Under the pieces are notes generated by a model, which worked only from the letters and a program-made list of their open reading frames with translations, searched no databases and was not told the origin of the DNA. A program made the translations under genes and the position numbers. DNA of 64,000 nucleotides, from positions 1,472,001 through 1,536,000 of the forward strand of contig OZ245011.1 in NCBI GenBank assembly GCA_965223665.1, written 5' to 3'. This stretch comes from Nitrospinaceae bacterium (lineage in GTDB: Bacteria; Nitrospinota; Nitrospinia; Nitrospinales; Nitrospinaceae). Below are positions 8,467 to 43,266 of the stretch, piece by piece (position 1 is the first letter of the stretch; every line of letters begins with the position of its first letter).

Positions 8467-9051
8467 ATGCGCCTGCCCTCCCCTTCAGAAAAAAATATCA
8501 AACGCCTCTATATTCTTTCATTGCTGATTTTCATTTCTATTCCCTTTGGCTTCTATGAGATCTCTTCCACCCGCGCCGGAACGTCGCCGGATTGCGTTGG
8601 GAACATCTCCGCGGATTACCTGAAGGCCAAGACTCATTACCAGAATGAACTGCACGATCTCATCACCAAAACCGCACCGGACCTCACCGTACTCGCCGGA
8701 ATCAATCGCGACCTGCAAGTCGCCCTGGCCGAAGACCGACACGCCCGATTACTTTTTCTGCTTGCCTCTAATAAGGAACGAATCGTCACGGACAAAGGCA
8801 TGTCCCGATTCAGCAACTTCGACTGGAACGCGGGAGACCAGAAATCCTTTCTGAAAGTTTCTGCGAATCACCAAAGCCAGACCGATCGCATCACAAAACT
8901 TAAAGAAAAGAACAATAACCATCCCGACTGGCCCAGAATGCGCAATCTCTTCCGCGAAAAACTTTTCTTAAAACCCGAATACCAGGCCATTCAAAAAGAA
9001 CTGACCACCCAAACCAAAGCCCTGGGCCAACAACTGAAACGTTGCCAATGA
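8467..9051 (+). CDS. secreted or membrane-anchored helical hypothetical protein; its 3' end is the apparent source of repeat family A
   Basis: AAGGA RBS, N-terminal hydrophobic segment; nt 8898-9120 recur downstream. Confidence 0.75.
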   Translation: MRLPSPSEKNIKRLYILSLLIFISIPFGFYEISSTRAGTSPDCVGNISADYLKAKTHYQNELHDLITKTAPDLTVLAGINRDLQVALAEDRHARLLFLLASNKERIVTDKGMSRFSNFDWNAGDQKSFLKVSANHQSQTDRITKLKEKNNNHPDWPRMRNLFREKLFLKPEYQAIQKELTTQTKALGQQLKRCQ

Positions 9052-9120
9052 GCAGACTTAAAATTCAAAACAAATGAGCTCACTAAAATCAATTAATAAA
9101 TAAAGCATGCTACACTATCC
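8898..9120 (+). repeat. repeat family A, intact master copy (gene 3' end + promoter)
   Basis: Segments align by eye to 12689-12775, 13774-13828, 14718-14807, 20646-20763, 24402-24516 and 43175-43266. Confidence 0.8.
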
Positions 9121-9174
9121 GCTTAAAGGTTTGATATCGATATTCAACTCCGAGTATTAAATCAGGAGGACACC

Positions 9175-10167
9175 ATTAAGAATTCCACTAATTTCTATTT
9201 AAAAAAATGTTTTTGCATTGGGGTATTTCTCCTATTTGGAATTCTCTCCGGTTGTGGCATTAGCGAAGATGAAGTTTCTTTAAGAAAGGGATCGGAGGCC
9301 TTCAAGCGCGAAGATGAAATTTCTTTAAGAAAAGGATCGGATTTCTTCAAACGCAAGGATTACCAATCCGCCTATTCCATTTTTGAACCCCTTGCTAACA
9401 AAGGCAACCCTGATGCTCAAAGCTTTCTTGGAACTATTTACCAGAATGGATTCGGCAGACCACAGGATTCGGTTAAAGCTGTGGAGTGGTTTCGAAAGTC
9501 GGCGGAACAGGGAAATAAAATCGGTCAAACAAACCTTGGAGTCCAGTATTTCCATGGAGAGGGTGTCGAGCAAGATGATACCCAAGCCGTCCATTGGTTT
9601 CGCAAGGCGGCAAATCAAGGGTTAGCTATAGCTCAACTAAAACTGGGATGGATGTATTCGAGAGGCAGAGGAGTTTCCCAAGATTATGATCAGGCAGCTA
9701 AGTTGTATCGCCAAGCCGCTGAGCAGGGAGATCAAATTGCTCAAACAAATCTTGGAAATTTCTATCTTAATGGCACTGGAGTTCCACAGGATGATGCTGA
9801 AGCGGTTCGTTGGTTTCGCAAGTCAGCGGAACAGGGACATCCGCAAGGTCAGAATAACTTGGGAGAGTCGTACCGTCTGGGAAAAGGCGTATCACAGAAT
9901 TTTCAAGAAGCGTTTCGACTATATGAACTGGCGGCAAATCAGGGAGATGACTTTGCTCATTTCAACCTGGGAGAAATGTATCGTGACGGGCAAGGCATAC
10001 CCAAAGACCTGGTAAAGGCCAGTATGCATTTCCAAATTTCCGCAAAACTTGGTCACGGCGACCATTCCGTAAAAGCCAATAAAGATATTTGGAAAAAAAT
10101 GCTTCCTGATCAAATAAATGAATCCAAAGAATTAGTTCAACAATGGGAATCGAAAAATTTAAAATGA
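9175..10167 (+). CDS. Sel1-repeat lipoprotein, probable ATT start
   Basis: Repeated AQxxLGxxYxxGxGVxQD Sel1 units; frame open upstream of GTG 9481 to ATT 9175, with AGGAGG at 9164-9169 and lipobox LSGC. Confidence 0.8.
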   Translation: MKNSTNFYLKKCFCIGVFLLFGILSGCGISEDEVSLRKGSEAFKREDEISLRKGSDFFKRKDYQSAYSIFEPLANKGNPDAQSFLGTIYQNGFGRPQDSVKAVEWFRKSAEQGNKIGQTNLGVQYFHGEGVEQDDTQAVHWFRKAANQGLAIAQLKLGWMYSRGRGVSQDYDQAAKLYRQAAEQGDQIAQTNLGNFYLNGTGVPQDDAEAVRWFRKSAEQGHPQGQNNLGESYRLGKGVSQNFQEAFRLYELAANQGDDFAHFNLGEMYRDGQGIPKDLVKASMHFQISAKLGHGDHSVKANKDIWKKMLPDQINESKELVQQWESKNLK

Positions 10168-10261
10168 AATGCCATCAGCCTGCTTTTTTAAAGAATGCCG
10201 GGGATTGATCTTTAGGATTATGAGAGGATCTTATATTGGACCTAGCTTTAACTGTGAGAAT

Positions 10262-11395
10262 TCAATTCACTTTAATGGGATTCATGAATTTTTGACCCGC
10301 TAATTCCGACTCGCCTGCCAAATTGAGTAAAACCTCCAGACGCTGGTCGAATTCCTCCATCGTACAATCCTTACTGGTCAAGGTAACGTGCCCGACCTTG
10401 CGTCCGGGCCGTTCTTGCTTGCCATAAAAATGCGGGATGGCACCGGGGACGCTGCGGATTTCCTTTTCATCTGGCAAGCGGCCTACCAGATTTACCATGG
10501 CGGTGGGTTGATCCGTTGCGGTGTTGCCCAGCGGCAAATCACAAATCGCTCGGAGATGATTCTCGAATTGGGATGTCTCCGCCCCTTCAATGGTCCAATG
10601 CCCGCTGTTATGAACGCGCGGCGCAAATTCATTGGCGAACAGTTGATCCTTCATCTGAAAAAGTTCCAGGGCCATCACTCCCACGTAATTAAAATCCTCC
10701 ATGAGTTTTCTTATAGTGTCATTCGCTTGAGTCTGGAACGGGTCATTCAATCGACTGATCGAAAGACGAAGGATACCATCGCGATGATGATTTTCACTGA
10801 TGGGATAAAACACCATATCGCCTTTTTGGTTGCGAGCCGCTATTATGGAAATTTCCCGATCAAAGGCCACCTTGGATTCGACAATACATGGAAATTCACC
10901 CAGCCGTTCCCAGGCAGCAACAAGGTCGGTTTCATCACGCAGCAACGCCTGGCCTTTGCCATCGTAACCTTGAGTGCGGGTTTTAAGAATGGCGGGAAGA
11001 CCGATGTCTTGAACCGCCCGCGTCAAACCTGCAAGAGTTTCAAAAGGCGCAAACTTTGCGGTCGGAATGCCCAGGGAGTTAAAATGGTTCTTTTCTATCA
11101 GGCGATCTCGCGCCACAGCTAACGGTGAAATCGAGGGATGCAGAGTCACTTGTGGCTGAAGTGATTCCAGAGCGAACAACGAAACGTTTTCAAATTCATA
11201 AGTCACAACGTCCGCCCACTCGGCTATGCTTTTCAGTGCCTGTTCATCATCGTAAGCGGCACAAAGATGCGTTCCCAAAGAAGCGGCACTCGGGTGACTA
11301 TTGGGACTCAGAAACATAAAGTTCAACCCGAGCGAGCGGCCTGCCTGGGCCATCATGCGGGCGAGTTGGCCGCCCCCAAGGACACCAATATTCAT
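10262..11395 (-). CDS. purK: N5-carboxyaminoimidazole ribonucleotide synthase
   Basis: [33 protein letters not shown] motifs; overlaps the purE stop. Confidence 0.96.
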
Positions 11396-11901
11396 AAATT
11401 GCCTTCGCGAGGATCAGGGTTTTCCAAAACAGTATCGGTTTGTTGCTTGCGGAAATTGTTTAAGGCGGTTTTGATATCAGGATACTTGTTGGCGAGAATA
11501 CCGGCTGCCAACAGAGCGGCGTTGATCGCACCGGCACGGCCAATTGCCAGAGTTCCCACGGGGATTCCCGCAGGCATCTGCACGATAGATAGTAATGAAT
11601 CCATACCATTTAGCGCTTTCGATTGCACGGGAACCCCCAACACAGGCAGAGAAGTTTTCGCCGCCATCATTCCGGGCAAATGGGCAGCGCCGCCGGCACC
11701 GGCGATGATGACTTCAATACCCTTCTGCTCAGCGCTTTCCGCATGTTGAAACAACTTGTCGGGAGTGCGGTGGGCGGATACGACTTCCACCGCATGCGGC
11801 ACATTCAGCGACTCTAAGGTTTCCGCCGCATGACGCATAGTGTCCCAATCCGACTTGGAACCCATAATAATACTAACAAGCGCAGTATCTTTGGTATTCA
11901 T
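11392..11901 (-). CDS. purE: N5-CAIR mutase
   Basis: [34 protein letters not shown]. Confidence 0.97.
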
Positions 11902-12100
11902 TGAATGGATGATCTCCTAAAGGTTTAAAGCGATTCAATTGATTTATCGATTTTAAAAAGACGGGATTGGTCTTAACCTGATTCCGGCTGTCTCTAATAA
12001 TACTATAATAATGAACCAATCCAAACGTTGGAGCAATATTTTCACTGCTTATTTTGGGGAGTGCCCGCCCTCTGACTTGAGTCCGTTTTTAGAGTTCAGT

Positions 12101-12129
12101 TTCAGGGGGCAAACCCTTGCCCCCTTGAA
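12101..12129. terminator. hairpin downstream of the His-rich gene
   Basis: TTCAGGGGGCAA-ACCC-TTGCCCCCTTGAA. Confidence 0.5.
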
Positions 12130-12132
12130 CGG

Positions 12133-12471
12133 CTAATTGGGTATAACTTCCACTGCTCCATGGTCATCACAGTGTTCACCATGTTGATGATGAAGACGCC
12201 CATCGACAATATAATCGATATGGTCTCCATGTGCGACCGCCGTATGTCCACAGCCAGAACTATGGACGTGGTTGTGATTATGCTTTTCAGCACACCCATT
12301 GGGATGCTGATCATTGACCTCTAAGACATGCTCGTCCACATGGTCTCCGTGAATGTGATGCAAATGTCCATCATGAAGATAATCGTAGTGATCTCCATGC
12401 TTAATCTTGGTATGACCGCAATTTTCTCCGTGAGTATGATCATGGTTGGGATGCTGGGTACAATCAGTCAT
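12133..12471 (-). CDS. His/Cys-rich small metal-binding protein with two internal repeats
   Basis: Two HxHxHxxxCGHxxxxHGDHxDYxxDGxLHH units; GAGGAG RBS. Confidence 0.85.
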   Translation of the reverse strand: MTDCTQHPNHDHTHGENCGHTKIKHGDHYDYLHDGHLHHIHGDHVDEHVLEVNDQHPNGCAEKHNHNHVHSSGCGHTAVAHGDHIDYIVDGRLHHQHGEHCDDHGAVEVIPN

Positions 12472-12688
12472 AGCTATCTCCTCAAGAAAGTTTATGATAA
12501 TCCCTTATCAAATGAATTCCTCTTAAGTTCAATTCGAATAAAAGAAATCATTACCCTCCTTCTCTCTAAATAGTTCAAGGGAAAAGGCATTCAGGACACA
12601 AACTGGCTTTTATACCCCGACCATATAACTCCACCTATAATTTGTCAATACCCTTTAAATGTACCTTTTAAATAGCACGAGAAACCCA

Positions 12689-12775
12689 TTGAAAAGTTGC
12701 CGATGAGCCCGACTTAAAAAATAGAATCCATGAATGTTGTGAAAAAGGGCTGCAAACAAAGCATGCTATAATTCC
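12689..12775 (+). promoter_or_regulatory. repeat A copy with extended -10 promoter
   Basis: TTGAAAAGTTGCCGATGAGCCCGACTTAAAA ... CAAACAAAGCATGCTATAATTCC (TGnTATAAT at 12764-12772). Confidence 0.7.
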
Positions 12776-12784
12776 CTGCCAGAT

Positions 12785-13846
12785 TTGAATGGAAGACTTC
12801 TTTTGAAGCTTGAATTTTTATATCGCCTCAAAAATAAATTTAAAATTGAATATCATATAACTTTGAAAACTTTTTTATATCTCTTACTTACCAGTGTTCT
12901 GCTCACCGCCTGTTCGAATTCACAGGTCACCTCCCAAAACACTCGTCCAAGTTCTGGGGTGGAACCCGCCTCCCGCGTAATCCCGGCGTCCGATGTCCAG
13001 TGGGTGGCGCTGAACCCCGCCCGCGGCGATAAAAGCCCAAAAGCGGGAACTCTCTGGGGCGATCGCACCGGCTCCGGTCCATCCGGCTTTCTGGTTAAGT
13101 TTGTGGATGGCTTCTCGTCGCCTGCGCATATTCACAACATCACCTACCGCGGAGTGGTCATCAGTGGGCTCGTTCACAACGATCATCCTGATGCGGACAA
13201 TCACTGGATGTCGGTGGGTTCTTACTGGACGCAACCTGCGGGAGCGGTGCACCTTACCTCTGCTAAGGGAAGTATGAATCTGGCGTACATAGAGATTGAA
13301 GAGGGGCCGTATCTCGTCCTTTCCACAAAGAAAGCGTTTGATAATGGAGATAGGCCGGTGAAAGTGGACGCATCGAACATTGATTGGATCCATCCGCCCG
13401 GAACGTCAGTTCCTTCCCATGGACTGAAGGTCGCTTTGCTCTGGGGCAAGCCGTCCGACGGCCAGTTGAACGGAACTCTTGTCAAACTGTCCGCCGGGTT
13501 TTCCGGTGAGCTTAGCAGCCCAGGCCCAACCTTACGCACGGTAGTTATCCAGGGTCTCGCAAAGCATCGAATGTCAAACGGAACCGACATCAAGACACTG
13601 GAGCCGGGCAGCTATTTCAGTTCAAAAGGGGAGTTGGCGCACCAGGTTTCATGCGAAGCAGGAAAAGACTGCATTCTCTACGTCCGCACAGAAGGCAAGT
13701 TCGGTATCCTTCCAGTGCCGCCCGGGAATTATCTTTCCCCGATTTACGCATTAAAAGTTTTCTTCTCTCAACCCAAAAACACTCACCACCCAAACCCAGG
13801 CCATGGGCCAACAACTGAAAAGTTGCCATGGAACAAGGGTCTGTAA
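12785..13846 (+). CDS. DUF4437-type cupin lipoprotein
   Basis: [38 protein letters not shown] motifs; lipobox LTAC; true start probably TTG 12863; C-terminus runs into a repeat A remnant. Confidence 0.8.
13774..13828 (+). repeat. repeat A copy lacking the promoter part
   Basis: CAAAAACACTCACCACCCAAACCCAGGCCATGGGCCAACAACTGAAAAGTTGCCA vs master 8992-9047. Confidence 0.75.
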
Positions 13847-13859
13847 AAAAATGGGCCCG

Positions 13860-14534
13860 TTATTTAGATGGCTGACCCGCGTTTAATCGGTTGGCCTCTT
13901 CATGATGCCAAAGGATTTGCTCACGAAGCTCCAAAATTTCCTCACGGTTGGCTTTTATAAGCTCATTCCACTCATTCCGTTTTGTTCCTTTTGGATCCAG
14001 ATAGGGTTTCTTATTGAACCGCTCCACTCGTTGCTGCAAGTGAACCACCTTGGCTTCCAGCCGTACTGCATCCTCATCCAGCAAGTCAGCAGCTTCGAGA
14101 TGCTCTTCTGAAGACCACTCCATGGCAGCTTTTGGCGAAAGTTGAGAAGCCAGCGCTTTCTTTCCGGATGACGATACCCCGTTTAACCGGTCGGCCTCTT
14201 GATTATGCCAGGCGATCTTATCATGAAGCTCCGAAATTTCGGCACGGTATGTTGATATACGCGATTTCCACTTTCGTCGCTTGACTCCTTTCAGATCGAG
14301 ATGCTTCTTCTTTTCGAACCGCACCACCCGTTGCTTCAGGTGAGCCACCTGGTCTTCCAGCCTTACCGCTTCTTCATGCAACAGGTCAGCCGCCTTCCGG
14401 TGCTCTTCTGCAGACCAATCCTTGACCTCCTGAGCGGAAAGGTGGGGAGGCAACACCTGTGTTTTGTTCTGCGCACAACCAAGAGAGAGACTCATCAAAA
14501 CAATACCCGTAAGAGCAACCATTCTATTTTTCAT
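13860..14534 (-). CDS. lipoprotein with two tandem ~105-aa coiled-coil repeats
   Basis: Lipobox SLGC; WSAEEHRKAADLL...WHNQEADRLN repeated as WSSEEHLEAADLL...WHHEEANRLN. Confidence 0.8.
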   Translation of the reverse strand: MKNRMVALTGIVLMSLSLGCAQNKTQVLPPHLSAQEVKDWSAEEHRKAADLLHEEAVRLEDQVAHLKQRVVRFEKKKHLDLKGVKRRKWKSRISTYRAEISELHDKIAWHNQEADRLNGVSSSGKKALASQLSPKAAMEWSSEEHLEAADLLDEDAVRLEAKVVHLQQRVERFNKKPYLDPKGTKRNEWNELIKANREEILELREQILWHHEEANRLNAGQPSK

Positions 14535-14717
14535 AGTTCACATCCTTCTTGTAAACAAAAAGATTAAAATTTGATGTTTATTCTTCTTTATGATCTGCTT
14601 TCAACGAAAAATATTCCCCAGTGATTCGGAATATACCGTCTTTTATTTAATTATTAAGATATCAATTCTGTAAAAACGATTCGAGTTTCTAGATTCGTTC
14701 AAGTCGGTCCCATAGAC

Positions 14718-14807
14718 CAAAAGAATGGCCCACCAAACTCAAGCCATGGGCCAATAGAATCCATAAGGCAATAGAATAGCGCCCTAAACAAAGCATGCTA
14801 TAATTCC
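14718..14807 (+). promoter_or_regulatory. repeat A copy with extended -10 promoter
   Basis: CAAAAGAATGGCCCACCAAACTCAAGCCATGGGCCAA ... TAAACAAAGCATGCTATAATTCC. Confidence 0.7.
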
Positions 14808-14938
14808 TAATCGGATTCGAATTAAAAATCTTTTTATAAAATTTTAAATTCTACTGTCAACCCCAGTGAACATCCAATTTTTAAAATTCACTTGTCACAC
14901 GTGTCGAAGGGAATTCTGTCATTTAATGGAGAGAAAAT

Positions 14939-16039
14939 ATGAATCAGGAAAGTAACCCATTATTCAGTCCGTTCCAGTTAGGCGATCTCACTTTGCAAAA
15001 TCGTATTGCTCTTTCACCCATGACCCGAGCCCGGGCGGGTTCGGAACAAACGGCAAACGAGCTTATGGCAGAATATTATTCCCAACGGTCGGCAGCGGGA
15101 TTGCTGATTACAGAGGGAACCTTTATCTCCAAACAAGCCGTGGGTTGGGTGAACGCACCGGGGATCTATAATGATGAACAAACCGAAGGCTGGAAAATTG
15201 TTACCGATGAAGTCCATTCCAAAGGTTCGAAAATTTTTCTTCAATTGTGGCATTGCGGCCGAGCCTCCCACAGCGCTTTTCATGGCGGTGAACTTCCGGT
15301 GGCTCCTTCGGCCATTCAACCTGATTTGAAATACATCCATACTCCCGATGGCAAAAAGGACCTTGAAGTTCCCCGGGCTCTCGACACCGATGAAATTCCT
15401 CAAGTCGTCAATGACTACAAGCTGGCAGCCAAAAGAGCCAAAGAAGCAGGGTTTGATGGGGTGGAGATTCACAGCGCCAACGGGTATTTGCTCGACGAGT
15501 TTCTTCAATCAAAAACCAATACCCGAACAGACCGTTACGGAGGAAGTCTGGAAAACCGGTTTCGGTTTCTTCAAGAAGTTGTCACTGCGGTCACAGAAGT
15601 CTGGCCCGCCAACCAGATAGGAGTTCGTCTCAGTCCCAATGGAAATTATAATGACATGGGGTCTGAAGACTTTCGAGAGTCTTTTACTTTTTATGCGAGC
15701 CAGCTGGACAAAGTGGGTTTGGCTTATTTGCACGTCGTCGATGGCCTGGCATTCGGGTTTCATGAACTGGGAGAACCGATGACCTTGAAGGAATTTCGCA
15801 ATGTTTTTCCCGGACCCATCATTGGGAATTGTGGATACACAAAAGAGACGGCGGAGGCAGCGATCCAGGAAGGAAACGCGGATTTGATTGCCTTTGGACG
15901 TCCCTTTATCAGCAACCCGGATCTGGTCGAACGGTTTCGTAACGGTTGGCCGTTGGCGGCGGATGCCGATGTCGGCGCCTGGTTTTCGTTTGAAAAAGAA
16001 GGGTATACTGATTTCGAATTTTACGAGAGCGGATCTTAA
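14939..16039 (+). CDS. old yellow enzyme family alkene reductase (NemA-like)
   Basis: PMTRAR, QLWHCGR, EIHSANGYL, RTDRYGGS, GRPFISNPDLV. Confidence 0.93.
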   Translation: MNQESNPLFSPFQLGDLTLQNRIALSPMTRARAGSEQTANELMAEYYSQRSAAGLLITEGTFISKQAVGWVNAPGIYNDEQTEGWKIVTDEVHSKGSKIFLQLWHCGRASHSAFHGGELPVAPSAIQPDLKYIHTPDGKKDLEVPRALDTDEIPQVVNDYKLAAKRAKEAGFDGVEIHSANGYLLDEFLQSKTNTRTDRYGGSLENRFRFLQEVVTAVTEVWPANQIGVRLSPNGNYNDMGSEDFRESFTFYASQLDKVGLAYLHVVDGLAFGFHELGEPMTLKEFRNVFPGPIIGNCGYTKETAEAAIQEGNADLIAFGRPFISNPDLVERFRNGWPLAADADVGAWFSFEKEGYTDFEFYESGS

Positions 16040-16091
16040 AAAATTCAAGGCTCAGCTATAACTCAGTGGTTCCATTCCCTATCAATAGATA

Positions 16092-16111
16092 GTTTCTATA
16101 TATATAGAAAC
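16092..16111. promoter_or_regulatory. perfect 20-bp palindrome upstream of cydAB, candidate operator
   Basis: GTTTCTATATATATAGAAAC. Confidence 0.4.
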
Positions 16112-16245
16112 CCTTCCTGAACACTTTTTGGCCTGTCGAAAAAAATGGTTTTTTACTCTGGAAACCCGCTTCCGCTTTGGATTAAAATAAAGGTGAATTA
16201 GAAAAGAACACCGCCTGAAATATCATCTAATAGAGCATTCCCGCT

Positions 16246-17541
16246 ATGATCGATTTGCTGGCAGCACGATCGCAATTGGCCGTCTCCCTGGGATTCCATA
16301 TCATTTTTGCCTGCATTGGAATTGCCATGCCTTTTTTCATGGCCGTCGCACACTGGAAATGGTTGCGCACCGGTCAACAGATTTTTCTCGATTTGACCCG
16401 CGCCTGGCTCAAGGGAGTCGCCATCTTTTTTGCCATCGGTGCCGTTTCCGGAACCGTGTTATCGTTTGAACTGGGACTGCTGTTTCCGAAGTTCATGGAA
16501 GTCGCCGGACCCATCATCGGCCTGCCCTTTTCCTGGGAAGGCGTGGCGTTTTTTCTCGAAGCCATTGCACTGGGACTGTTTTTGTACGGATGGGATATCG
16601 TCAATCGATGGGTGCACTGGGCCTCCGGCGTGGTGATGGGAATTGCCGGTGCTGCTTCGGGTATGATCGTCATCTGCGCCAACGGGTGGATGAACAGTCC
16701 GGAAGGTTTCGACTGGGTGAACGGTCAGGCTGTCAACATCGATCCCATCGCTGCCATGTTCAACAACGCGTCGCTGCACCAGGGAATTCATATGACGATA
16801 GCCTCGTTTGCCGCCACCGGGTTTGCGGTCGCAGGTGTTCACGCCATTCTCATATTGAGGAAGAAAAATATTTCGTTTCACCAGGAGGCGTTGAAAATTG
16901 CCCTGGCGTTTGGCGCAGTGGCCGCTTTGCTCCAACCCCTCAGTGGAGATTTCATATCCCGGCATTTGACCGAACACCAGCCGGAAAAAGCCGCCGCCAT
17001 GCATGCGCAATTCAAAACCGAAAAAGGCGCGCCTCTTTTAATTGGTGGCATTCCTCTGGAAAAAGAGAAGACCGTTAAGTTCGGCATCTACATTCCCAAA
17101 ATGCTCAGCTTTCTGGCGCATCATGATTTCAACGCAGAAGTGACCGGACTCGACGCGTTTCCGGAAGAGAATCATCCGCCGGTGGCGGTGGTGCATTTCG
17201 CATTTCAGATTATGGTGGGTATCGGAACTTTTCTTGCCGGCCTGTCTGCACTTTATTTTCTATTCGTGATGAAATTTCCGCGCCTGCTGTTTCATTCGCT
17301 CTATCTAAAGGGTCTTGCCCTCGCGATTCCGCTGGGATTCATCGCGGTGGAAGCGGGATGGGTGGTGACAGAAGTGGGACGCCAGCCGTGGATCATCTAT
17401 AAAATAATGAAGGTTTCCGAAGCGGTCACGCCGATGCCGGGGCTGATTTATCCGTTCCTTCTATTCACCGGCATCTATGTTTTCCTGTCGTTTGTCGCGG
17501 CCTGGTTGCTGTTCCGCCAGATCAAGGCGGTGAAAACTTAA
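16246..17541 (+). CDS. cydA: cytochrome bd ubiquinol oxidase subunit I (short Q-loop type)
   Basis: FHIIF, FFLEA, QPEKAAAM, GWVVTEVGRQPW. Confidence 0.95.
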   Translation: MIDLLAARSQLAVSLGFHIIFACIGIAMPFFMAVAHWKWLRTGQQIFLDLTRAWLKGVAIFFAIGAVSGTVLSFELGLLFPKFMEVAGPIIGLPFSWEGVAFFLEAIALGLFLYGWDIVNRWVHWASGVVMGIAGAASGMIVICANGWMNSPEGFDWVNGQAVNIDPIAAMFNNASLHQGIHMTIASFAATGFAVAGVHAILILRKKNISFHQEALKIALAFGAVAALLQPLSGDFISRHLTEHQPEKAAAMHAQFKTEKGAPLLIGGIPLEKEKTVKFGIYIPKMLSFLAHHDFNAEVTGLDAFPEENHPPVAVVHFAFQIMVGIGTFLAGLSALYFLFVMKFPRLLFHSLYLKGLALAIPLGFIAVEAGWVVTEVGRQPWIIYKIMKVSEAVTPMPGLIYPFLLFTGIYVFLSFVAAWLLFRQIKAVKT

Positions 17542-17563
17542 AATGTTTTAGGAGTCTGAATTT

Positions 17564-18580
17564 ATGATCGAAGTGGTAATGGTTTTTCTGGCAGGGGCAC
17601 TTTTGCTTTATGTGTTGTTAGGCGGAGCGGACTTCGGCGCGGGCATTCTGGAAATGTTTGTCAATCGCAAAACTCGAAGCCAACAGAAAACTATTATCAA
17701 CAAGGCCATGGGGCCGGTCTGGGAGGTCAACCACATCTGGCTGATCATCGCCGTGGTCATCATGTTCAACGCGTTCCCCAAAGCCTTCAGTCAAATTTCA
17801 GTCACATTTCACATTCCGCTGACCATCATGTTAGTGGGCATCATCACTCGCGGGTGCGCGTTTGCCTTTCGCAACTACGACGCGTATCGGGATCAGTCGC
17901 AGAAGTACTATTCACTCGCGTTCGAAATTTCCAGCGTCTTGACACCGTTCAGTTTAGGCCTGACGCTTGGCGGAATCTTGATCGGACGAATCAATCCGCA
18001 AGCAGATTCGTTTTACGCCGCGTTCATTGATCCGTGGTTCAACGTGTTCTCGTTTACACTAGGAATTTTTACCTGCTGTCTGGTTACTTACATCGCCTCG
18101 GTTTACATCATCGGAGAAACTCGAAAACAAATTCTTCGGCGACAATTCGTTTACCGGGCCAAGGTGGCAGGAGTCGTGACTTTTATCATGGGAGTTTTAG
18201 TCATCGAGGCGGCGGTGTTTTACGAATCGGAACTGTTTTCCAAATTTTATTCGGACGGATTCAGTCTGTCGTGTATTTTTCTCGCGGCCATCCTGTCCGT
18301 ACCGCTATGGAAATTATTGAACCATCCTCGCGCAATCCTTGCGCGCCTGTTGGTGGGGGCGCAGGTGTCGCTGATTTTTCTGGCGTGGTACGAAATGCAG
18401 TTTCCTTTTATTATTGCCCCTTCGGAATTGTTTGGCTTTGAAGGACTCAATCTGTATCAAGTCGCGGCACCGGAAAGCACCTTCAAATATCTGTTGATTG
18501 CGCTGGTCGCCGGATCGGCAATTATTTTTCCCGCCTGGTTGTATCTTATCCGCGTGTTCAAGTTTCGATGGAATTCATAG
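17564..18580 (+). CDS. cydB: cytochrome bd oxidase subunit II
   Basis: GADFGAG, GPVWEVNHIWL; follows cydA. Confidence 0.94.
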   Translation: MIEVVMVFLAGALLLYVLLGGADFGAGILEMFVNRKTRSQQKTIINKAMGPVWEVNHIWLIIAVVIMFNAFPKAFSQISVTFHIPLTIMLVGIITRGCAFAFRNYDAYRDQSQKYYSLAFEISSVLTPFSLGLTLGGILIGRINPQADSFYAAFIDPWFNVFSFTLGIFTCCLVTYIASVYIIGETRKQILRRQFVYRAKVAGVVTFIMGVLVIEAAVFYESELFSKFYSDGFSLSCIFLAAILSVPLWKLLNHPRAILARLLVGAQVSLIFLAWYEMQFPFIIAPSELFGFEGLNLYQVAAPESTFKYLLIALVAGSAIIFPAWLYLIRVFKFRWNS

Positions 18581-18740
18581 ATCCCACTCAAACGGATAGC
18601 TATGAAAGAAGTGGCGAATTTAATTCGTTTTCATTAAACTAATTCTAAAGCAAATATACTTATTAACCAGCGGTTAAGCAAAACATAACCACTTACTATA
18701 CCTATGGCACTTAACGTCGCTACATCCTGGGAGATTTGGC

Positions 18741-19247
18741 ATGATTAGATTGCCCTGGATTCTTAGGGTGCTATTTGTATCCTCTTTTTTAGCGGGCTGT
18801 AGCTCTCTTCCTGTTGAAACTCCCCCTCAGGAAATTATTATTCTAAATTCAAATAAGGCCAACCTCTCCGATTCCAGATCCGTCCGAAAAAAAATCTACC
18901 GGCAGTATGAACGCTGGAAAGGAACGAAATACCATATAGGTGGTCTTTCCAGAAAAGGTATCGACTGCTCGGGATTGGTTTATGTCACCTACCGTGAGCA
19001 GTTGGGCATTAAACTTCCCCGAACCACTAAGTTGCAGGTTAAAGCCGGAAGAACGATTAAGCGCAGTGAGCTTCGGTCCGGTGACCTGGTTTTTTTTAAA
19101 ACAGGAATCAAGGTCCGCCATGTGGGAATCTATATAGAAGACGGAAAGTTTTTTCATGCATCCACAAAGAAAGGTGTTACGATTTCCAAATTGAGTGACT
19201 ATTACTGGAAAGACAGGTACTGGCACTCAAGAAGAATGGAGCGGTAG
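18741..19247 (+). CDS. NlpC/P60 lipoprotein endopeptidase
   Basis: Lipobox LAGC, IDCSGLV, GDLVFF, HVGIY. Confidence 0.93.
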   Translation: MIRLPWILRVLFVSSFLAGCSSLPVETPPQEIIILNSNKANLSDSRSVRKKIYRQYERWKGTKYHIGGLSRKGIDCSGLVYVTYREQLGIKLPRTTKLQVKAGRTIKRSELRSGDLVFFKTGIKVRHVGIYIEDGKFFHASTKKGVTISKLSDYYWKDRYWHSRRMER

Positions 19248-19267: not shown

Positions 19268-19360
19268 GATGTGCTCCCTCTTTTCTAAAGAGGGCTGGGG
19301 TGATTCACATTCAGGGGTTTGCGGCGAACCGCTGCAGGTAAAATTCATTTGTGATGAATA
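19268..19360 (-). repeat. REP/MITE-like repeat family D
   Basis: Reverse complement aligns with 49764-49856; hairpins CCCTCTTTTCTAAAGAGGG and GCGGCGAACCGC. Confidence 0.7.
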
Positions 19361-20642: not shown

Positions 20643-20645
20643 ATC

Positions 20646-20763
20646 AAAGCAAAGAATAATAACCATCCCGACCGGTCCAAAATGCATCGCCTCCTTTGCG
20701 AAACCCTATAGAACCAATGAGTTCGCCAAAGCCAGCGCAGCAAACAAAGCATGCTATAATTCC
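20646..20763 (+). promoter_or_regulatory. repeat A copy (internal deletion) with extended -10 promoter
   Basis: AAAGAATAATAACCATCCCGACCGGTCCAAAATGC ... CAAACAAAGCATGCTATAATTCC. Confidence 0.75.
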
Positions 20764-20832
20764 TTCATGGAATAACAACATACATTGGATTTACAGATAG
20801 CCAAAAAAAATTCCCTGAAAATGGAGGGCAGA

Positions 20833-24122: not shown

Positions 24123-24401
24123 GATGGTATCTTAAAACTAACAATTTGAGAATAAGCGCAATTTTCTTTCGCACAAATCAAGTTAAACGAAATTAAATTG
24201 GTGATTTTACTTTTTAATCCGAATTTGTCAATCTCATTTAATAGTGATTCGAATCAATGTTATTTATAAACAAGGATTTATGCCAAGGAGAGCAATGCGG
24301 CGCGATTGCAGTGGATAACAGCCATCGAAAACAAGCAGGCTCAATCACTATATGAATCCATGGAAGTCAATATAAGTACCTGGTTGCTTTACTCCGGCAA
24401 G

Positions 24402-24516
24402 ACTTAAAGAAAAATATCCAACCCGACCGGTCCAAAATGCCCCCCTTTTTCACAAAACCTTATAGAACAAATGGGCTTAATTAAGTTTAGGCAGTAAACA
24501 AAGCATGCTATAATCC
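24402..24516 (+). promoter_or_regulatory. repeat A copy with extended -10 promoter in front of the AbiTii-like gene
   Basis: ACTTAAAGAAAAATATCCAACCCGACCGGTCCAAAATGC ... TAAACAAAGCATGCTATAATCC, then AAGGAG RBS. Confidence 0.75.
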
Positions 24517-24537
24517 ACGTTTAAAGGAGAACTTTTT

Positions 24538-27663: not shown

Positions 27664-27922
27664 TTATTTTCATTAGAAATTGATCTGCCGCAGAAGTTTA
27701 CACTATTTTTAAGCTAGAGCTTCCTCCTTTAACATGAAAGACATTGGGGCCAGTGGACTTTAAACACAAAAATTGTGTGATGGAACCACAGGATATTCTG
27801 GCAATTGTAGGTCAAAGTTTCAAAGTTGGTTATTGGCCAAATGAAAACTCCTCTTATAGCTATTCACTTAACAGTGGCAAAATACTGTATTTTTAGAAAC
27901 CATTTGAAAAAGATTCATCATC

Positions 27923-28067
27923 ATGTGGAACTGGTTTCGTAAATTTCGGCGGAGGAAAATACTGGCGGAGCCTTTCCCCAGTGAGTGGGAAACGCACATT
28001 AAAAACAGCCTTCCATATTATCGGCACCTGAACGCTGAGAACCAAAACGATTGCGGAGTCTCGTCCA
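27923..28067 (+). pseudogene. truncated, frameshifted 5' copy of the MtfA-like peptidase gene (repeat family B)
   Basis: MWNWFRKFRRRKILAEPFPSEWETHI... closely matches 43839-43984. Confidence 0.9.
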
Positions 28068-35907: not shown

Positions 35908-35961
35908 GGAACAGGTTTAGGTTAAAAAAACTCTATAGGTACTTACAAAAAAACAACAAAC

Positions 35962-38853: not shown

Positions 38854-38888
38854 ATAAAGTTTTCGAGTGAACTGTTGGAGGAAGAATA

Positions 38889-39383: not shown

Positions 39384-39392
39384 CTGACTATA

Positions 39393-39545
39393 AGGGAGCA
39401 CATCTACCTCCCTCTGCAGTTTCTTCTAAAGGCAATCTTTACTTCGGGAAATTTTCTGTGGATTCCGCATTAACACAAACTCATCGATAATTCATTTTGT
39501 CCGCGGGCGCTGGCCCGCTATCTCCGCGGCCCGTGGTAAAACCTC
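39393..39545 (+). repeat. REP/MITE-like repeat family D
   Basis: AGGGAGCACATC, and TTCTGTGGATTCCGCATTAACACAAACTCATCGATAATT...GCGGGCGCTGGCCCGC. Confidence 0.6.
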
Positions 39546-39652
39546 CTTGCCGGATTTGATTAAAAATCCGGTTTTAGGTATAAGGGGTTTATTAGCGATC
39601 CCAGGCGGACCTGAACCATAACTTTAATTTATTAATCAACCGACACAAAACA

Positions 39653-39877
39653 ATGAGCGAACAAAATTTAAATATTTCCTTAACCCAAGATGAAGCCCTG
39701 GTTTTCTATGAAATGATCTCCCGGTTTTCTGGATCGGAAAATTTACCGATTGAGCATCAGGCCGAACTCATAACCTTATGGAACTTAAAGAGCAACCTTG
39801 AAAAAGAATTAAGCGATTCATTAAAATCCAATTATGATGAATCCCTTCAGGCAGCCCGCGATAACATGATGAAGTAA
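39653..39877 (+). CDS. small acidic hypothetical protein
   Basis: LTQDEALVFYE...AE...LW...LEK...Y...AAR pattern; 74 aa. Confidence 0.7.
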   Translation: MSEQNLNISLTQDEALVFYEMISRFSGSENLPIEHQAELITLWNLKSNLEKELSDSLKSNYDESLQAARDNMMK

Positions 39878-39946
39878 CAACGGAAAAATTCTTTCAGGTT
39901 ACGGTTCCCAAAACCAAACACCCACCCCTGCCCGAATGGGTAATAT

Positions 39947-40047
39947 AATACTGGCTACTCTTTTCCCCAGCGAGTGGAAATCACACATCCAAAAAAGCCT
40001 TCCTTATTATCAGTACCTGGACAGTGAAGAACGAAAACGTTAGCCGG
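39947..40047 (+). pseudogene. second, more degenerate 5' fragment of the MtfA-like gene (repeat family B)
   Basis: TTTCCCCAGCGAGTGGAAATCACACATCCAAAAAAGCCTTCCTTATTATCAGTACCTG vs 43889-43946. Confidence 0.85.
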
Positions 40048-40103
40048 AAAACCCGAGGGGGGAAAACCCCGCGGGTTTTACAGGAATGGTTCCACCACAT
40101 GAA

Positions 40104-40676
40104 TTAATATTTTTCAATGACCAGATCGACAGGAAGAGAATTCGACACCGTATCGTAGACCGGGGAAAACAGGGCCAGTTCTTTCAGTTGTTCCGCCGGC
40201 GCTTCGCTTTTGACTTTCATATGGACGCGGATAGCCTGATAACCTTTTCGCACTTCCTGGGAAATCCCCAGAAACCCCCGTGCATCAATATCCCCTTCCG
40301 TTGAAGAAATTATGTCCTTCACCTCAATGCCCCGAACCGCCGCATGCGCCACAAGCGAAGTGGTCAGGCAGGAGGTCAAAGCATGAAGAAGATGTTCCAC
40401 CGGATTGGCGGCGCTTCCCTTCCCTCCCAAAAGAACCGGTTCATCGGCTTCTAATACAAACGGCTTAGGGTACGTGACGGTCTCCCCATAATCGCCGAGA
40501 TATTCTTTGAACTCGCTTCGGTTCGTGGTCCCGCCGGTCCATTGATTTTTTGATTTAAACCGCCACTTCCCGCAGTTCTCATCGGTGCTGACGTTATTGA
40601 CCACACGGTTGACCTTATCAATCTCAATTCCGTTGACGATTTTTGATGTTTGAAGAGTTGCTTGGTTGGTAGACAT
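40104..40676 (-). CDS. OsmC-family protein
   Basis: NGI, DEP..LGG, ANPVEHLLHALTSC, SPVYDT. Confidence 0.88.
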   Translation of the reverse strand: MSTNQATLQTSKIVNGIEIDKVNRVVNNVSTDENCGKWRFKSKNQWTGGTTNRSEFKEYLGDYGETVTYPKPFVLEADEPVLLGGKGSAANPVEHLLHALTSCLTTSLVAHAAVRGIEVKDIISSTEGDIDARGFLGISQEVRKGYQAIRVHMKVKSEAPAEQLKELALFSPVYDTVSNSLPVDLVIEKY

Positions 40677-40761
40677 TTCGATTCTCCTTTTATGTGAATA
40701 TTAACGGGACACAAACGTGCCCAATATTTTTTGAGAATACGTAATGTCTGTTTTTAAGTAT

Positions 40762-40800
40762 ACTGTACGAAATGTAGTAATTAACTACAGAAAACGTAGT
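40762..40800. promoter_or_regulatory. two ACT-N11-AGT boxes between the divergent OsmC and HxlR-type genes
   Basis: ACTGTACGAAATGTAGT (40762-40778) and ACTACAGAAAACGTAGT (40784-40800). Confidence 0.5.
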
Positions 40801-40817
40801 TAAAGGAGTCTTCTAAA

Positions 40818-41510
40818 ATGACAAATTATGGTCAGTTTTGTCCGGTATCTAAAGCGGCGGAGGTATTGTTTGAAAAATGGACAATATTAATCGTGCGGGA
40901 ACTTTTGCTGGGAACCACTCGCTTTAATGATTTTCAGCGCGCCCTATCGAGGATCTCCCCGACTCTTCTCACCAAGCGCCTTAAAGCACTTGAGGAGAAT
41001 GGGGTTATTTTACGAAAACAGGTTTCCGGGCGTCGGGGGTATGAATATCGTTTAACGCCGGCAGGCAAAGAGCTTGAACCTCTTCTGGAAAAAATTGCGG
41101 TTTGGGGGATGCGGTGGGCCAGAGGTCAGATGAGCGACGATGAACTGGATGTGGAATTTCTAATGTGGGAAATTCAACGCAGAATTCAGACCAGATACCT
41201 TCCGGGTGGAGAGACGGTAATCTGTTTTGAGTTTACGGATTTAAAAAAACACAAGTACTGGTGGATCTGGGTTAATGAAGATGAAGTGGATTTGTGCACG
41301 GAAGATCCCGGCAAGGAGGTTGACTTGTACATCACAACGGATTTACGAACCATGGTTGAAGTATGGCAGGGCGATCTGGATTTTAAAAAAGCAGTGAAGA
41401 GCGAAAAACTGGAAACCTATGGCAAAAAAAAATTAACCAAGACCCTGCCGGACTGGATCGGGCTGTGTAAATATTCGAATGTGCGACCTGCTTCTTCTAT
41501 AAATGCATAA
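40818..41510 (+). CDS. HxlR-family winged-helix regulator with SCP2-like C-terminus
   Basis: YGQFCPV, KWTILIVRELL, RFNDF, LTKRLKALE, EYRLTPAG. Confidence 0.9.
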   Translation: MTNYGQFCPVSKAAEVLFEKWTILIVRELLLGTTRFNDFQRALSRISPTLLTKRLKALEENGVILRKQVSGRRGYEYRLTPAGKELEPLLEKIAVWGMRWARGQMSDDELDVEFLMWEIQRRIQTRYLPGGETVICFEFTDLKKHKYWWIWVNEDEVDLCTEDPGKEVDLYITTDLRTMVEVWQGDLDFKKAVKSEKLETYGKKKLTKTLPDWIGLCKYSNVRPASSINA

Positions 41511-41571
41511 GGGACTGCAGGTGCAGAAGATTACTATTTCAAACCCAGTAAAAATGAATAGATAAAAAAAT

Positions 41572-42402
41572 ATGTCTTTCGATGAAAATGTCTCTGAACA
41601 TTACACCCATGGAAATTTGCTTAATGCCGTCAAAAGGGGAATTGAACAACTGGGCAAGACTTCAAGCTCTATCACAGTAGAAGACCTGGCACCTTTGGAT
41701 GAATTTCATATTGGGGGCCGACAGGCTTCAGAAAATTTTTTTGATCAACTCAATTTTTCAGCGGAAGATCATCTTGTCGATGTTGGATGTGGACTCGGTG
41801 GGGCATCGCGGTTCGTTGCCAAAAGATACAACAGCAAAGTTACAGGCATCGATTTAACTCCGGAGTATATAGAAACCGGAAAAGCGCTTTGCACCTGGCT
41901 GGGATTGGATAATCGGGTTGATCTGCAACAAGGCAGCGCTCTTAACTTGCCCTTCGAAAAAGATGTTTTTGACGGAGGTTACATGATGCACGTGGGGATG
42001 AACATCCAGGACAAGATTGGATTATATAAGGAGATTTTTCGGGTGCTTCGCCCTGGTGCTGATTTTGGAGTTTATGATGTCATGCGGGTGGAAGAGGGTG
42101 AATTAATGTATCCGGTTCCATGGGCAAGTACCGCTAATGAAAGTAACGTGGCAAGTCCCGAACAGTATAAACAGGCAATCGAAGAAGCGGGTTTTAAAGT
42201 GACTTCAGAAAATAACCGACATGAATTTGCTCTGTCGTTTTTCGAACAATTACAAAAACATTCTAACAAGGCAGAGGGTCCGCCCCCCTTAGGCATTCAT
42301 ATTCTTATGGGAAACAATTCGGCTGCTAAAGTACAGAATATGATCAAAAACGTTTCCGCCGGGCTTATCTCCCCTGTTGAGCTTATCGCCAGAAAAATTT
42401 AG
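41572..42402 (+). CDS. class I SAM-dependent methyltransferase
   Basis: DEFHIGG, VDVGCGLGG, GIDLT, LPF, RVLRPG. Confidence 0.9.
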   Translation: MSFDENVSEHYTHGNLLNAVKRGIEQLGKTSSSITVEDLAPLDEFHIGGRQASENFFDQLNFSAEDHLVDVGCGLGGASRFVAKRYNSKVTGIDLTPEYIETGKALCTWLGLDNRVDLQQGSALNLPFEKDVFDGGYMMHVGMNIQDKIGLYKEIFRVLRPGADFGVYDVMRVEEGELMYPVPWASTANESNVASPEQYKQAIEEAGFKVTSENNRHEFALSFFEQLQKHSNKAEGPPPLGIHILMGNNSAAKVQNMIKNVSAGLISPVELIARKI

Positions 42403-42416
42403 TCAGCGATTGAAAT

Positions 42417-42445
42417 AAGGTCCACTATCGGTCGAAAGTGGACAC
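42417..42445 (+). repeat. family C short palindrome (perfect 7-bp stem)
   Basis: GTCCACT-ATCGGTCGAA-AGTGGAC. Confidence 0.65.
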
Positions 42446-42584
42446 CCATTTAAATTAAAAAACAAACTTTTCTCAGAGTCACACCATCCACAACAGAAGT
42501 GTCCTTGATTAAGAAAGATTGAGAAGTAGAAACGGCCAGCCTGTTTGTATTGACCTCAACGCGACGACTCAAACTGTTTTGCAA

Positions 42585-42938
42585 TCAGGGAAAAGGAATA
42601 TGAACCCCAACTCCAATATCAACACCACCCTCAATAGTCGGTTTATTTTGTCCGCCTGAATTACGGGGTTGCCGGACGTCAGGGTAATCCCCTCGCTGCT
42701 TTGTCGGGTAGTGACTGATTCTTCTGGGCTGACATTTTTTAGCATGTCCGGGAGGGACTTTTCCTTGTTTAGCTAACCCGGGTGGTGTACCACAACGACT
42801 GTTGTGACTTTTGGAATAATTGCCATTTCCTTTATGTTTTCCCCATTTTTTACCACCTGCAAATGAAACAGATGAAAAGAGAAAAATTAATACCAACGCC
42901 GGGATCACAAAAAATACCGATTTATTCATGGACCGCAT
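42585..42938 (-). CDS. secreted low-complexity protein with PPGLAK motif
   Basis: Signal peptide ending SFA, PPGLAKQGKVPPGHAKK; GAGGAG RBS. Confidence 0.7.
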   Translation of the reverse strand: MRSMNKSVFFVIPALVLIFLFSSVSFAGGKKWGKHKGNGNYSKSHNSRCGTPPGLAKQGKVPPGHAKKCQPRRISHYPTKQRGDYPDVRQPRNSGGQNKPTIEGGVDIGVGVHIPFP

Positions 42939-43174
42939 TCAATATCCTCCTCAGTTATAAAAATTATAAAAACAGGTTAAGGACATTACCGGGTTTGTGA
43001 AACAGATAAATGTGGGGAGAATCCAAAGGATTGAAAAATCAGATCAACAAAAATTTAATTTTCCAGGTAAATCTATGCCATTGCAAACGCTTTATAATCA
43101 TTTCTTTTTCAAATGGAGACCTGCCTCCTGAGTAAGGAAAAAACGCAGCACAGATAATCCAGGAATTCTGGACT

Positions 43175-43266
43175 AACAACTGAAAAATTGCCAATGAGGC
43201 AGATTAAAAGAATACAACAAATAACCTCCTCGAAACCAGTTCAGTAAATAAAGGATGATATAATTT
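43175..43266 (+). promoter_or_regulatory. repeat A copy with extended -10 promoter
   Basis: AACAACTGAAAAATTGCCAATGAGGCAGATTAAAA ... TAAATAAAGGATGATATAATTTC. Confidence 0.7.

Follow-up and report, generated by a model that had tools for sequence, protein, structure and literature searches.

Why should the closing codons of one gene, together with the DNA behind them, stand in front of a series of unrelated genes? This question is raised by a 64-kb window of a 4.24-Mb Nitrospinaceae genome (contig OZ245011.1, positions 1,472,001 to 1,536,000), to which the copy counts given here refer. The 3' end of one gene in this window, which we call gene X, comprising about the last 50 codons, was found with its downstream spacer six more times, always on the plus strand and between 12.7 and 43.3 kb, both by repeat search and by self-BLASTN. 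We regard the family as a traceable and local instance of promoter reuse, clear but fairly ordinary. There is, in our estimate, about an even chance that it represents a locally propagated promoter module, in which new copies arose from existing ones through duplications and deletions at the locus, a process termed promoter capture.

Positions 8800-9200 were compared with the window by self-BLASTN at a word size of 7. Matches were obtained to the copies that we number c2 (13775-13828, 87.0% over 54 nt, E 2.9e-13), c6 (43168-43260, 74.2% over 93 nt, E 1.8e-9), c4 (20646-20685, 87.5% over 40 nt, E 2.2e-8), c5 (24398-24440, 77.1%, E 1.4e-4, and 24495-24527, E 0.07) and c3 (14719-14754, 81.1%, E 6e-3), along with short matches at 12754, 14785 and 20742 to a conserved box described below. 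In further alignments of c6, positions 9022-9119 matched 43168-43267 (73%, E 8e-13), and c2 (13776-13828) matched 43138-43193. Counting the original stretch, or master, the family has seven members, all co-oriented and confined to 35 kb, and the other 28 kb of the window hold none. A profile of the spacer and box (module C in Table 1) recovered exactly the six window sites and no weaker ones. An initial annotation of this DNA had reported the six plus-strand recurrences, and they were recovered where it had placed them, except that the start of c6 had to be moved from 43175 to near 43138. It had also described the coding-derived part as decayed and differently deleted, in keeping with the module composition, which differs between copies. 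The genes that it had listed downstream were those found: Sel1 behind the master, and the genes for DUF4437, OYE, a Cys-rich secreted protein, AbiTii and GNAT behind c1, c3, c4, c5 and c6, respectively. These genes belong to differing Pfam families, and tblastn of 55 window proteins indicated no paralogy among them.

Table 1. Coordinates of gene X, of the seven members of the repeat family and of the associated gene and gene fragments in the window.
Feature	Coordinates	Strand	Location	Description
Gene X	8467..9051	+		194 aa, all-helical, N-terminal hydrophobic segment; source of the coding-derived part of the repeat
Master module	8898..9129	+		A 8898-8983; B 8994-9063 (~50 last codons; stop 9049-9051); C 9064-9116 (spacer + box)
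Master box	9098-9116	+	~90 nt 5' of the probable Sel1 start ATG 9207	Reads AAATAAAGCATGCTACACT
Copy c1	12672..12820	+	Between ORF112(-) and DUF4437(+)	Decayed B, then C; exact box 12754-12772, then ~48 nt common only to c3
Copy c2	13752..13835	+		Module B only, without box; firm part 13775-13835, 5' extension to ~13752 tentative
ORF224	13860..14534	-	Between c2 and c3	Lipoprotein gene, LSLGC lipobox
Copy c3	14719..14853	+	Between ORF224(-) and OYE(+)	Left half of B fused directly to C; exact box 14786-14804, then c1-like 5'-untranslated part
Copy c4	20644..20768	+	Between PAS histidine kinase(-) and Cys-rich secreted protein(+)	A fused to C, B deleted; exact box 20742-20760
Copy c5	24398..24527	+	Middle of low-GC zone	A fused to C (sister of c4); exact box 24496-24514
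M90 (MtfA-type) peptidase fragment 1	27817..28067	+	Right end of c5 block	Gene 5' end + ~100 nt upstream
M90 fragment 2	39947..40044	+	Followed directly by terminator + 3' end of OsmC(-)	Codons ~13-43, 83.5% identity
Copy c6	43138..43272	+		B + C, colinear with master; box 43246-43264 reads AAATAAAGGATGATATAAT

Gene X itself matched no family in Pfam or NCBIfam. A profile search of 1.84 billion representatives yielded 331 cluster representatives at E<=1e-3, mostly about 175-195 aa in length, and the matches typically extended to about position 189 of the 193 in the profile. Four homologues that share words with X aligned with its C-terminus at 40% identity, and N149, N150, H152, W155 and C193 were invariant. 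One of these four proteins comes from the source contig itself; no full-length paralogue of X on that contig was among the four proteins that the word-based search returned. A homologue at 85% identity is attributed to a contig of a sister Nitrospinaceae. The structure model of X (predicted local distance difference test score, pLDDT, of 80) is all-alpha, and found 0 matches in the PDB at E<=1e-3. This conservation shows X to be a genuine gene, and since its C-terminus is conserved coding sequence, copying ran from the gene to the copies.

The part of X that recurs is sharply defined. Outside X, recurrence in the window was limited by tblastn to X residues from 143 onward, and neither tblastn nor nhmmer found remnants of the region upstream of residue 143 in the window. 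The translation of c4, IKAKNNNHPDRSKMHRLLCETL, aligned by tblastn with X residues 145-166. Copy c2, as judged from its coordinates, is read out of the X frame, inside a 44-codon 3' extension of the DUF4437 open reading frame (ORF). The conservation of X, the restriction to residues 143 and beyond and the different frame of c2 together indicate that the coding sequence is the source and that the copies are non-coding relics, which bears out the initial annotation in deriving the copies from the end of X and the promoter that lies behind it. At 13729-13846 the DUF4437 ORF passes the position at which a relative has its stop (TAA there, TTA in the window) and traverses c2; it is 353 aa long in the window and 309 aa in the relative. 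A further X-like stretch, at 15741-15766 on the minus strand and thus antisense to the OYE coding region, matched X 8968-8990 at 19 of 20 nt (BLAST E 0.002-0.016), and is probably due to chance.

Shared changes among the copies allow part of their history to be read. Copies c4 and c5 are colinear (20651-20760 against 24406-24514, 76.4% over 110 nt, E 7.6e-15) and both lack module B, which argues for a shared deletion and therefore for descent of copy from copy; they also share substitutions relative to the master, for example GACCGGTCCAAAATGC against GACTGGCCCAGAATGC. Copies c4 and c5 are thus sisters derived from one already-deleted copy. The initial annotation had reached the same descent for these two copies, and both the common deletion of B and the copy-of-copy relationship stand, whereas the junction half that it had cited, TATAGAAC, is not specific to the pair: it corresponds to the family consensus (ATAGAAY..ATG.G) and is found in c1, c3 and c6 as well. 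Behind TATAAT, c1 and c3 continue to resemble each other over about 48 nt that have no counterpart in the master (12720-12820 against 14753-14853, 70.6% over 102 nt, E 2.8e-11), and the motif ATAGAATCCAT is likewise present in both and absent from the master. The sequence GAAAA(G/A)TTGCC is common to c1, c2 and c6, where X has GAAACGTTGCC. These variants, shared by c4 and c5, by c1 and c3 and by c1, c2 and c6, suggest that most copies derive from other copies and not directly from present-day X, and the order of copying seems partly readable from the shared deletions.

The most constant part of the repeat is a 19-nt box, AAACAAAGCATGCTATAAT. Allowing <=3 mismatches, six matches were found in the window, all on the plus strand, against 0.02 expected, and 0 of 100 shuffles reached six. 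The box was exact at 12754, 14786, 20742 and 24496 and carried three mismatches at 9098 (master) and 43246 (c6); c2 has none. This agrees with the earlier observation that it is identical in four copies and recognisable in a fifth. It contains TGCTATAAT, a TGn-extended -10 element, and no -35 element is conserved. The sequence TGNTATAAT occurs seven times in the window against 1.96 expected, and five of the seven occurrences are copies. Among the 41-43 positions that could be compared just 5' of the box, 18-27 were identical per pair of the six window copies, as opposed to 19/19 for the box itself in four copies.

The position of the boxes is equally informative. Between 9.1 and 43.8 kb, boxes occur at five of eight junctions of a minus-strand with a plus-strand gene and at 0 of 12 junctions between two plus-strand genes (Fisher p = 0.0036), and they are therefore located at the heads of plus-strand transcription units. 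In c5, the -10 element ends 23 nt 5' of the TTG start of AbiTii, and an AAGGAG ribosome site is present; in c6, it ends 9 nt 5' of the GNAT ATG without a ribosome site, and the GNAT mRNA likely has a leaderless start. Spacing this tight leaves no room for another promoter before these two genes. We conclude that the box most likely supplies the promoter for the downstream genes. The identity of the box and its place at operon heads, set beside substitutions and differing deletions in the X-derived part, support the view, expressed in the initial annotation as well, that selection keeps the box while the X-derived part decays.

A degenerate version of the box was next used to scan a genome collection of 596 Gb, which returned 63 loci. 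Sixty-one of these lie in unrelated taxa, and a pattern of this degeneracy would, by a rough estimate, give tens of chance matches in 596 Gb; the remaining two overlapping loci (L036 and L037) belong to one Nitrospinaceae metagenome-assembled genome. In the contig of this relative (4,002,951 bp) the box occurs only twice, 1,074 nt apart, on the plus strand in both cases and in both cases at the locus under study, and each box is identical to that of the window at 18 of 19 positions. Comparison with the relative rests on 5.1 kb of this one genome, which aligned with window positions 10721-13808 (86%), 14786-16097 (89%) and 18561-19243 (86%). The gene order purK-purE-ORF112-c1-DUF4437-copy-OYE-NlpC/P60 is kept in this sister species at 86-89% nucleotide identity, and therefore at least c1 and c2/c3 are older than the split between the two species. 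Around c1, the upstream intergenic DNA is identical at 171 of 199 positions, the box region at 33 of 38 and the 5'-untranslated region at 60 of 79, and the X-derived part at only 24 of 43 with 32 gap columns. The low value for the X-derived part indicates that it evolves as junk between constrained neighbours. ORF112, at 12133-12471 on the minus strand and next to purE in the relative too, encodes 112 aa rich in His and Asp with repeated HGDH motifs, and may be a metal-binding protein.

Two segments of the window are absent from the relative, 16098-18560 (cydAB) and 13809-14785 (ORF224). The cydAB indel has GTTTC microhomology at its bounds and a 20-nt perfect palindrome, 16092-16111, at its left edge. 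At the ORF224 site, the relative has a single hybrid copy in which the left part of c2 is joined in register to the right part of c3, including the B-to-C junction of c3, and the join falls within a 12-nt identity, GCCATGGGCCAA. ORF224 has 72 homologues at 60-76% identity; the named sources are all Nitrospinota or Nitrospirota, and none among the 72 comes from the contig of the relative, a pattern that points to deletion in the relative. For the M90 peptidase gene that closes the zone of copies, a homologue at 90% is attributed to the relative and the next-closest, among the best 120 of 4302, stands at 77%; the closest ORF224 homologue, at 76%, is similarly distant, which fits loss of ORF224 in the relative. 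The simplest reading would be that ORF224 was inherited vertically here and lost in the relative through recombination between the co-oriented c2 and c3. ORF224 also contains an internal duplication (13877-14124 against 14177-14424, 300-nt spacing, 74% identity), giving two repeats of about 100 aa.

What kind of process could have placed the copies where they are? No recombinase (integrase, transposase or casposase) was found among 56 window ORFs scanned against Pfam, nor any by a PADLOC scan of six ORFs, and no tRNA, tmRNA or Rfam family was found in the window. The copies have no shared terminal inverted repeats, none of the seven members folds clearly better than its shuffles (z -1.6 to +1.2), and the master module matched nothing in plasmid and phage collections. 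The genes that lie between the copies include purK/purE, cydAB, the NlpC/P60 gene and those for a PAS histidine kinase, a TonB-dependent receptor and a monomeric IDH. The copies share one orientation, keep within 35 kb and descend from one another, native genes lie between them, and no recombinase was found; these features argue for a local recombinational process and not for a mobile element or integrase.

Other gene ends in the window have been copied in a comparable manner. The parent region of the M90 gene, 43735-43984, comprises its upstream DNA and first ~48 codons, and two fragments co-oriented with it are found further left (Table 1). Fragment 1 matches at 85.6% over 180 nt (41 aa at 85%), and at 77% over 253 nt against 43735-43984. 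Each fragment abuts the terminator and 3' end of a convergent gene, as at a duplication junction, and the M90 5' fragments make up a second family of gene-end relics, parallel to that of X and within the same 35 kb. A tandem duplication detected by BLAST at 51875-52387 has a unit of about 255-268 nt and 74% identity. The duplicated unit takes in 33 codons at the end of a NuoL/DabB-like gene (50276-51976), the spacer behind it and ~49 codons at the beginning of the following gene (52248-53480); a chimeric 82-aa ORF, 51983-52231, was created, and the 3' end of the first gene now lies copied 5' of the second. This duplication and the M90 fragments support local duplication as a process at work in this DNA.

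We therefore favour promoter capture along the following lines. A stretch of ~220 nt, made up of the last ~50 codons of X and the putative promoter behind X, would have been duplicated once or a few times and would then have passed copy-from-copy to six sites in the next 35 kb in the same orientation. The likely route is local duplicative recombination, in which segmental or tandem duplication is followed by deletion of the redundant DNA. Five copies now head plus-strand transcription units, with the box, AAAYAAAGCATGCTATAAT, under selection and most likely serving as promoter, and with the X-derived part non-functional and decaying. The co-oriented copies in addition act as substrates for recombination, and an event between c2 and c3 probably removed the intervening gene in the relative.

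The copy c5 lies in the middle of a low-GC zone at ~22.0-27.9 kb (GC 0.29-0.38), which contains a 489-aa ORF of no known family on the minus strand, followed by AbiTii, an NsnB-like AAA_15/DUF3696 ATPase and a 171-aa ORF. It forms a small phage-defence islet, apparently driven by c5.

Several observations weigh against promoter capture. Large duplications should leave relics of other genes, and tblastn of the 55 window proteins finds only fragments of the X 3' end and the M90 5' end, between 9 and 44 kb; such relics could perhaps have been erased by age and deletion. Duplication restricted to the ends of blocks fits models of the insertion type, or with homologous arms, better. No duplication junction is recognisable at the copies, and the flanks 5' of them share nothing. 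The cargo of c5 is low-GC foreign DNA. The promoter role is deduced from sequence, conservation and position: a scanner for consensus -35/-10 promoters flags none of the boxes, which would therefore need to act as extended -10 promoters, and the box of the master is the weakest (TACACT). Ten bases 5' of the TG are also conserved, although a -10 element does not require them, and could represent an operator, gene conversion or a recombination core. Finally, the comparative base is the 5.1 kb of a single relative, and the source genome was searched within the window only.

The restriction of duplication to block ends is most readily accommodated by models in which the blocks themselves move. The initial annotation had proposed that site-specific recombination inserted islands one by one at the end of X or of its copies, each island bringing a surrogate 3' end and a promoter and leaving an att-like array, and we now regard this as unlikely. 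The arrangement does resemble such an array, with an intact target and, behind it, incomplete copies of its 3' end in the same orientation, and PMC6563490 describes arrays of this kind at protein genes; the block 13809-14785, bounded by c2 and c3, is present in one genome and absent from the other, and the genes after c5 (AbiTii and the NsnB-like ATPase) are low-GC defence cargo. Serial insertion would, however, have to dispense with any integrase, transposase, casposase or tRNA in the window and place purK/purE, cydAB and IDH inside the supposed islands. The block adjoining X, expected to be the newest, is syntenic in a species that is 11-14% diverged, and gene order, whose conservation across relatives the initial annotation had itself named as a refutation, is kept over the 5.1 kb of the one relative compared, the ORF224 and cydAB segments apart. 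The boxes of the master and of c1, the copy nearest to it, differ at 3 of 19 positions. The sole copy-bounded difference between the genomes lies at c2-c3 and not at X, where the distribution of ORF224 suggests loss in the relative. The repeat unit of ~220 nt also contrasts with the att sites given in PMC6563490, of 29-69 bp for crenarchaeal elements and 13 bp at one thaumarchaeal site. A connection that had been suggested with another repeat family of the window, family C, through GCCAATGAGCAGACTT could not be upheld, as this sequence has no other window match at <=3 mismatches; D3, the hairpin-bearing repeat family described below, shares only a short ATGAG-like stretch. Integrase-free cassette traffic, which seems to us rather unlikely, would retain the mobile blocks and replace the enzyme: the X 3' end with its promoter and the 5' end of M90 would be homology arms between which blocks are gained, lost and stacked by RecA-type recombination, through loop-out circles and single-crossover re-integration, the region from X to M90 being an expanded variable locus. 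Such traffic would explain why only ends are duplicated and why every copy of the X 3' end and every M90 5' fragment lies between X (8467) and M90 (43839). It would also account for two segments with the same flanks and different cargo, one running from c5 through AbiTii to M90 fragment 1 and the other from c6 through GNAT to M90, and for the difference between the two genomes, as loop-out or integration at c2/c3 with an in-register join inside the 12-nt identity. Yet what follows each of the M90 fragments is the tail of a convergent gene and not a copy of the X 3' end, housekeeping genes lie in the blocks, the identity of the arms, now 60-87%, is poor for homologous recombination, and the polarity of the ORF224 difference favours simple deletion. 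No evidence of an X-M90 neighbourhood was obtained in any genome; among the best 120 of 4302 M90 homologues, none lies on the two contigs (7725 and 1176 nt) that carry distant X homologues, a result of no weight either way. A bolder variant, which we consider quite unlikely, would see in the X 3' end and promoter the attachment site of a chromosomal cassette platform, built the opposite way round from an integron, at which blocks are gained and lost. The work would be done by a recombinase encoded elsewhere or by host homologous recombination, each captured block would receive the same promoter or operator, and the AbiTii block and the presence or absence of ORF224 would be two visible transactions. 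Were this true, it would represent a novel route by which bacteria assemble gene arrays.

The two other alternatives concern the repeat rather than the blocks. A miniature inverted-repeat transposable element (MITE), similar to Correia, ERIC or REPIN sequences, with an outward promoter, a transposase encoded elsewhere and a similarity to X acquired by insertion into the end of X, is highly improbable, even though promoter-bearing miniature elements are known according to PMC3575422 and the window holds another dispersed repeat family that bears hairpins. Shared terminal inverted repeats, excess folding and plasmid or phage matches are all lacking, and the recurring part of X encodes residues that are conserved across the X family, hence it cannot have arrived by insertion into X. 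The initial annotation had taken scatter across the genome in both orientations as the mark of a free MITE; the window shows one orientation and a 35-kb range for all seven members, and the relative, searched over 4.0 Mb, has its two boxes at the same locus, the source genome being covered for the extent of the window. The identity of the box could, on the other hand, be kept mainly by gene conversion, or because the box is an operator or a recombination core, and not on account of a promoter function for the downstream genes, a possibility to which we assign a small probability. In AAA(C/T)AAAGC, the variable position is C in all four exact copies of the window and T in both copies of the relative, and so agrees within each genome, a hint of gene conversion or of an overlapping site for a regulator. 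The ten conserved bases mentioned above exceed the needs of a -10 element, and AAAGCATGCTAT is nearly palindromic. Set against these points, a single site shows the concerted pattern, and a promoter role accords with the TGnTATAAT core, with the placement at the heads of operons and with the short distances to AbiTii and GNAT. An overlapping operator would be compatible with promoter capture and would not replace it; speculatively, the ten additional bases may be the site of a shared regulator, and the genes may be co-regulated.

A few further features of the window deserve mention. An eighth copy was considered 5' of M90, where ATAGAATCCA, exact at c1 and c3, is also exact at 43778; the module C profile misses 43778, and the candidate was dropped. 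Another repeat family, D3, of ~80 nt with a GC-rich hairpin, is found at 39449-39529, 45973-46053 and 49733-49813 on the plus strand, at 19269-19357 on the minus strand and partly at 6106-6134. It is placed, in either orientation, immediately 3' of genes, and thus resembles a REP-like element or one that carries a terminator. In the Sel1 gene behind the master (9207-9480), reading a lipoprotein signal with an LSGC lipobox from the probable start, ATG 9207, requires a +1 shift within the T-run 9210-9214, which is either a real frameshift or a homopolymer error of the assembly; the gene also contains a 45-nt tandem repeat at 9263-9352. The NuoL-like gene, a gene for a 410-aa membrane protein and DabA (PF10070, E 7e-262) are clustered at 50276-56773, in what looks like a DAB-type locus for inorganic-carbon uptake.

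Reused promoters are mostly known as anonymous similar upstream sequences, whereas in this family the donor can be recognised by the piece of neighbouring gene that moved with the promoter, and a second genome shows which part of the repeat is under selection. One box heads six transcription units in 35 kb, namely that of the master and five of the eight that start on the plus strand behind a gene on the minus strand. This suggests that a resident promoter can domesticate foreign genes, such as the low-GC phage-defence block, and that unrelated genes may come under common regulation. The copies would have a cost in serving as substrates for recombination, which probably deleted a conserved lipoprotein gene in the sister species. 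No mapped promoters of Nitrospina were found in the literature, as judged from the titles listed.

It is instructive to place the family beside systems in which unrelated genes are joined to a recurring sequence. Integrons have the integrase IntI, and their cassettes lack promoters and end, on the 3' side, in the structured attC site. The present array resembles an integron in that unrelated genes are separated by a recurring site, and differs in that the unit is unstructured, lies 5' of the genes and bears a promoter; neither an integrase nor the IntI/attC pair was found. Integrative elements that insert at tRNA genes, or in the 3'-distal part of protein genes, and form tandem arrays there have already been described (PMC6563490). 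The integrative elements described in that source share with our locus an intact target, co-oriented partial copies of its 3' end and blocks of genes between them, and the locus is set apart by its lack of an integrase or casposase, its ~220-nt promoter-bearing unit, its non-identical copies, its housekeeping genes and its conserved synteny. Correia, ERIC and REPIN sequences, as named in PMC3575422, are likewise short repeated DNA that gives promoters to its neighbours. The X-derived repeat differs from them in its lack of terminal inverted repeats and hairpins, its single orientation, its conserved coding origin and the absence of genome-wide spread in the relative.

Closer parallels are found in promoter capture. 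In the experiments of Li & Bock (2019; PMC6614815), as reported there, five of eight events were deletions and three of eight were tandem duplications, with up to eight copies and with microhomology at the breakpoints, and in the Cit+ case of Blount et al., as related in PMC3575422, a local rearrangement put a resident promoter before another gene. The captured promoters described in PMC6614815 and the present family have in common co-oriented local copies of a promoter, gene fragments at the junctions and the activation of foreign genes, of which the low-GC AbiTii block behind c5 would be an example. The laboratory events are fresh and, in that account, the duplicated genes are still present. 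In our window, co-oriented copies and fragments of neighbouring genes were found, relics are confined to the X 3' end and the M90 5' end and none of the enclosed duplicated genes was recovered; the family has seven members and dates from before a species split.

The nearest category is that of the putative mobile promoters of Matus-Garcia, Nijveen & van Passel (2012; PMC3575422), who are cited for more than 4,000 families of reused promoters, defined by >=80% identity over >=50 nt within -150 to -50 of the start codon. In that description, too, homologous upstream DNA precedes unrelated genes in one genome with no known mobile element, and the mode of movement is given as unknown. The X-derived family has similar sequence 5' of at least two genes, and these genes are non-paralogous. 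Its identities lie below the cut-off, both for c4 with c5 (76.4% over 110 nt) and for c1 with c3 (70.6% over 102 nt); only the master with c2 reaches 87% over 54 nt, and c2 does not lie 5' of a gene. The conserved part in our case is the -10 region, which falls mostly outside the interval of -150 to -50 used in PMC3575422. What distinguishes this family further from those promoters is that its donor is visible through the hitch-hiked 3' end of a coding sequence, and that it is local, within 35 kb, co-oriented and old.

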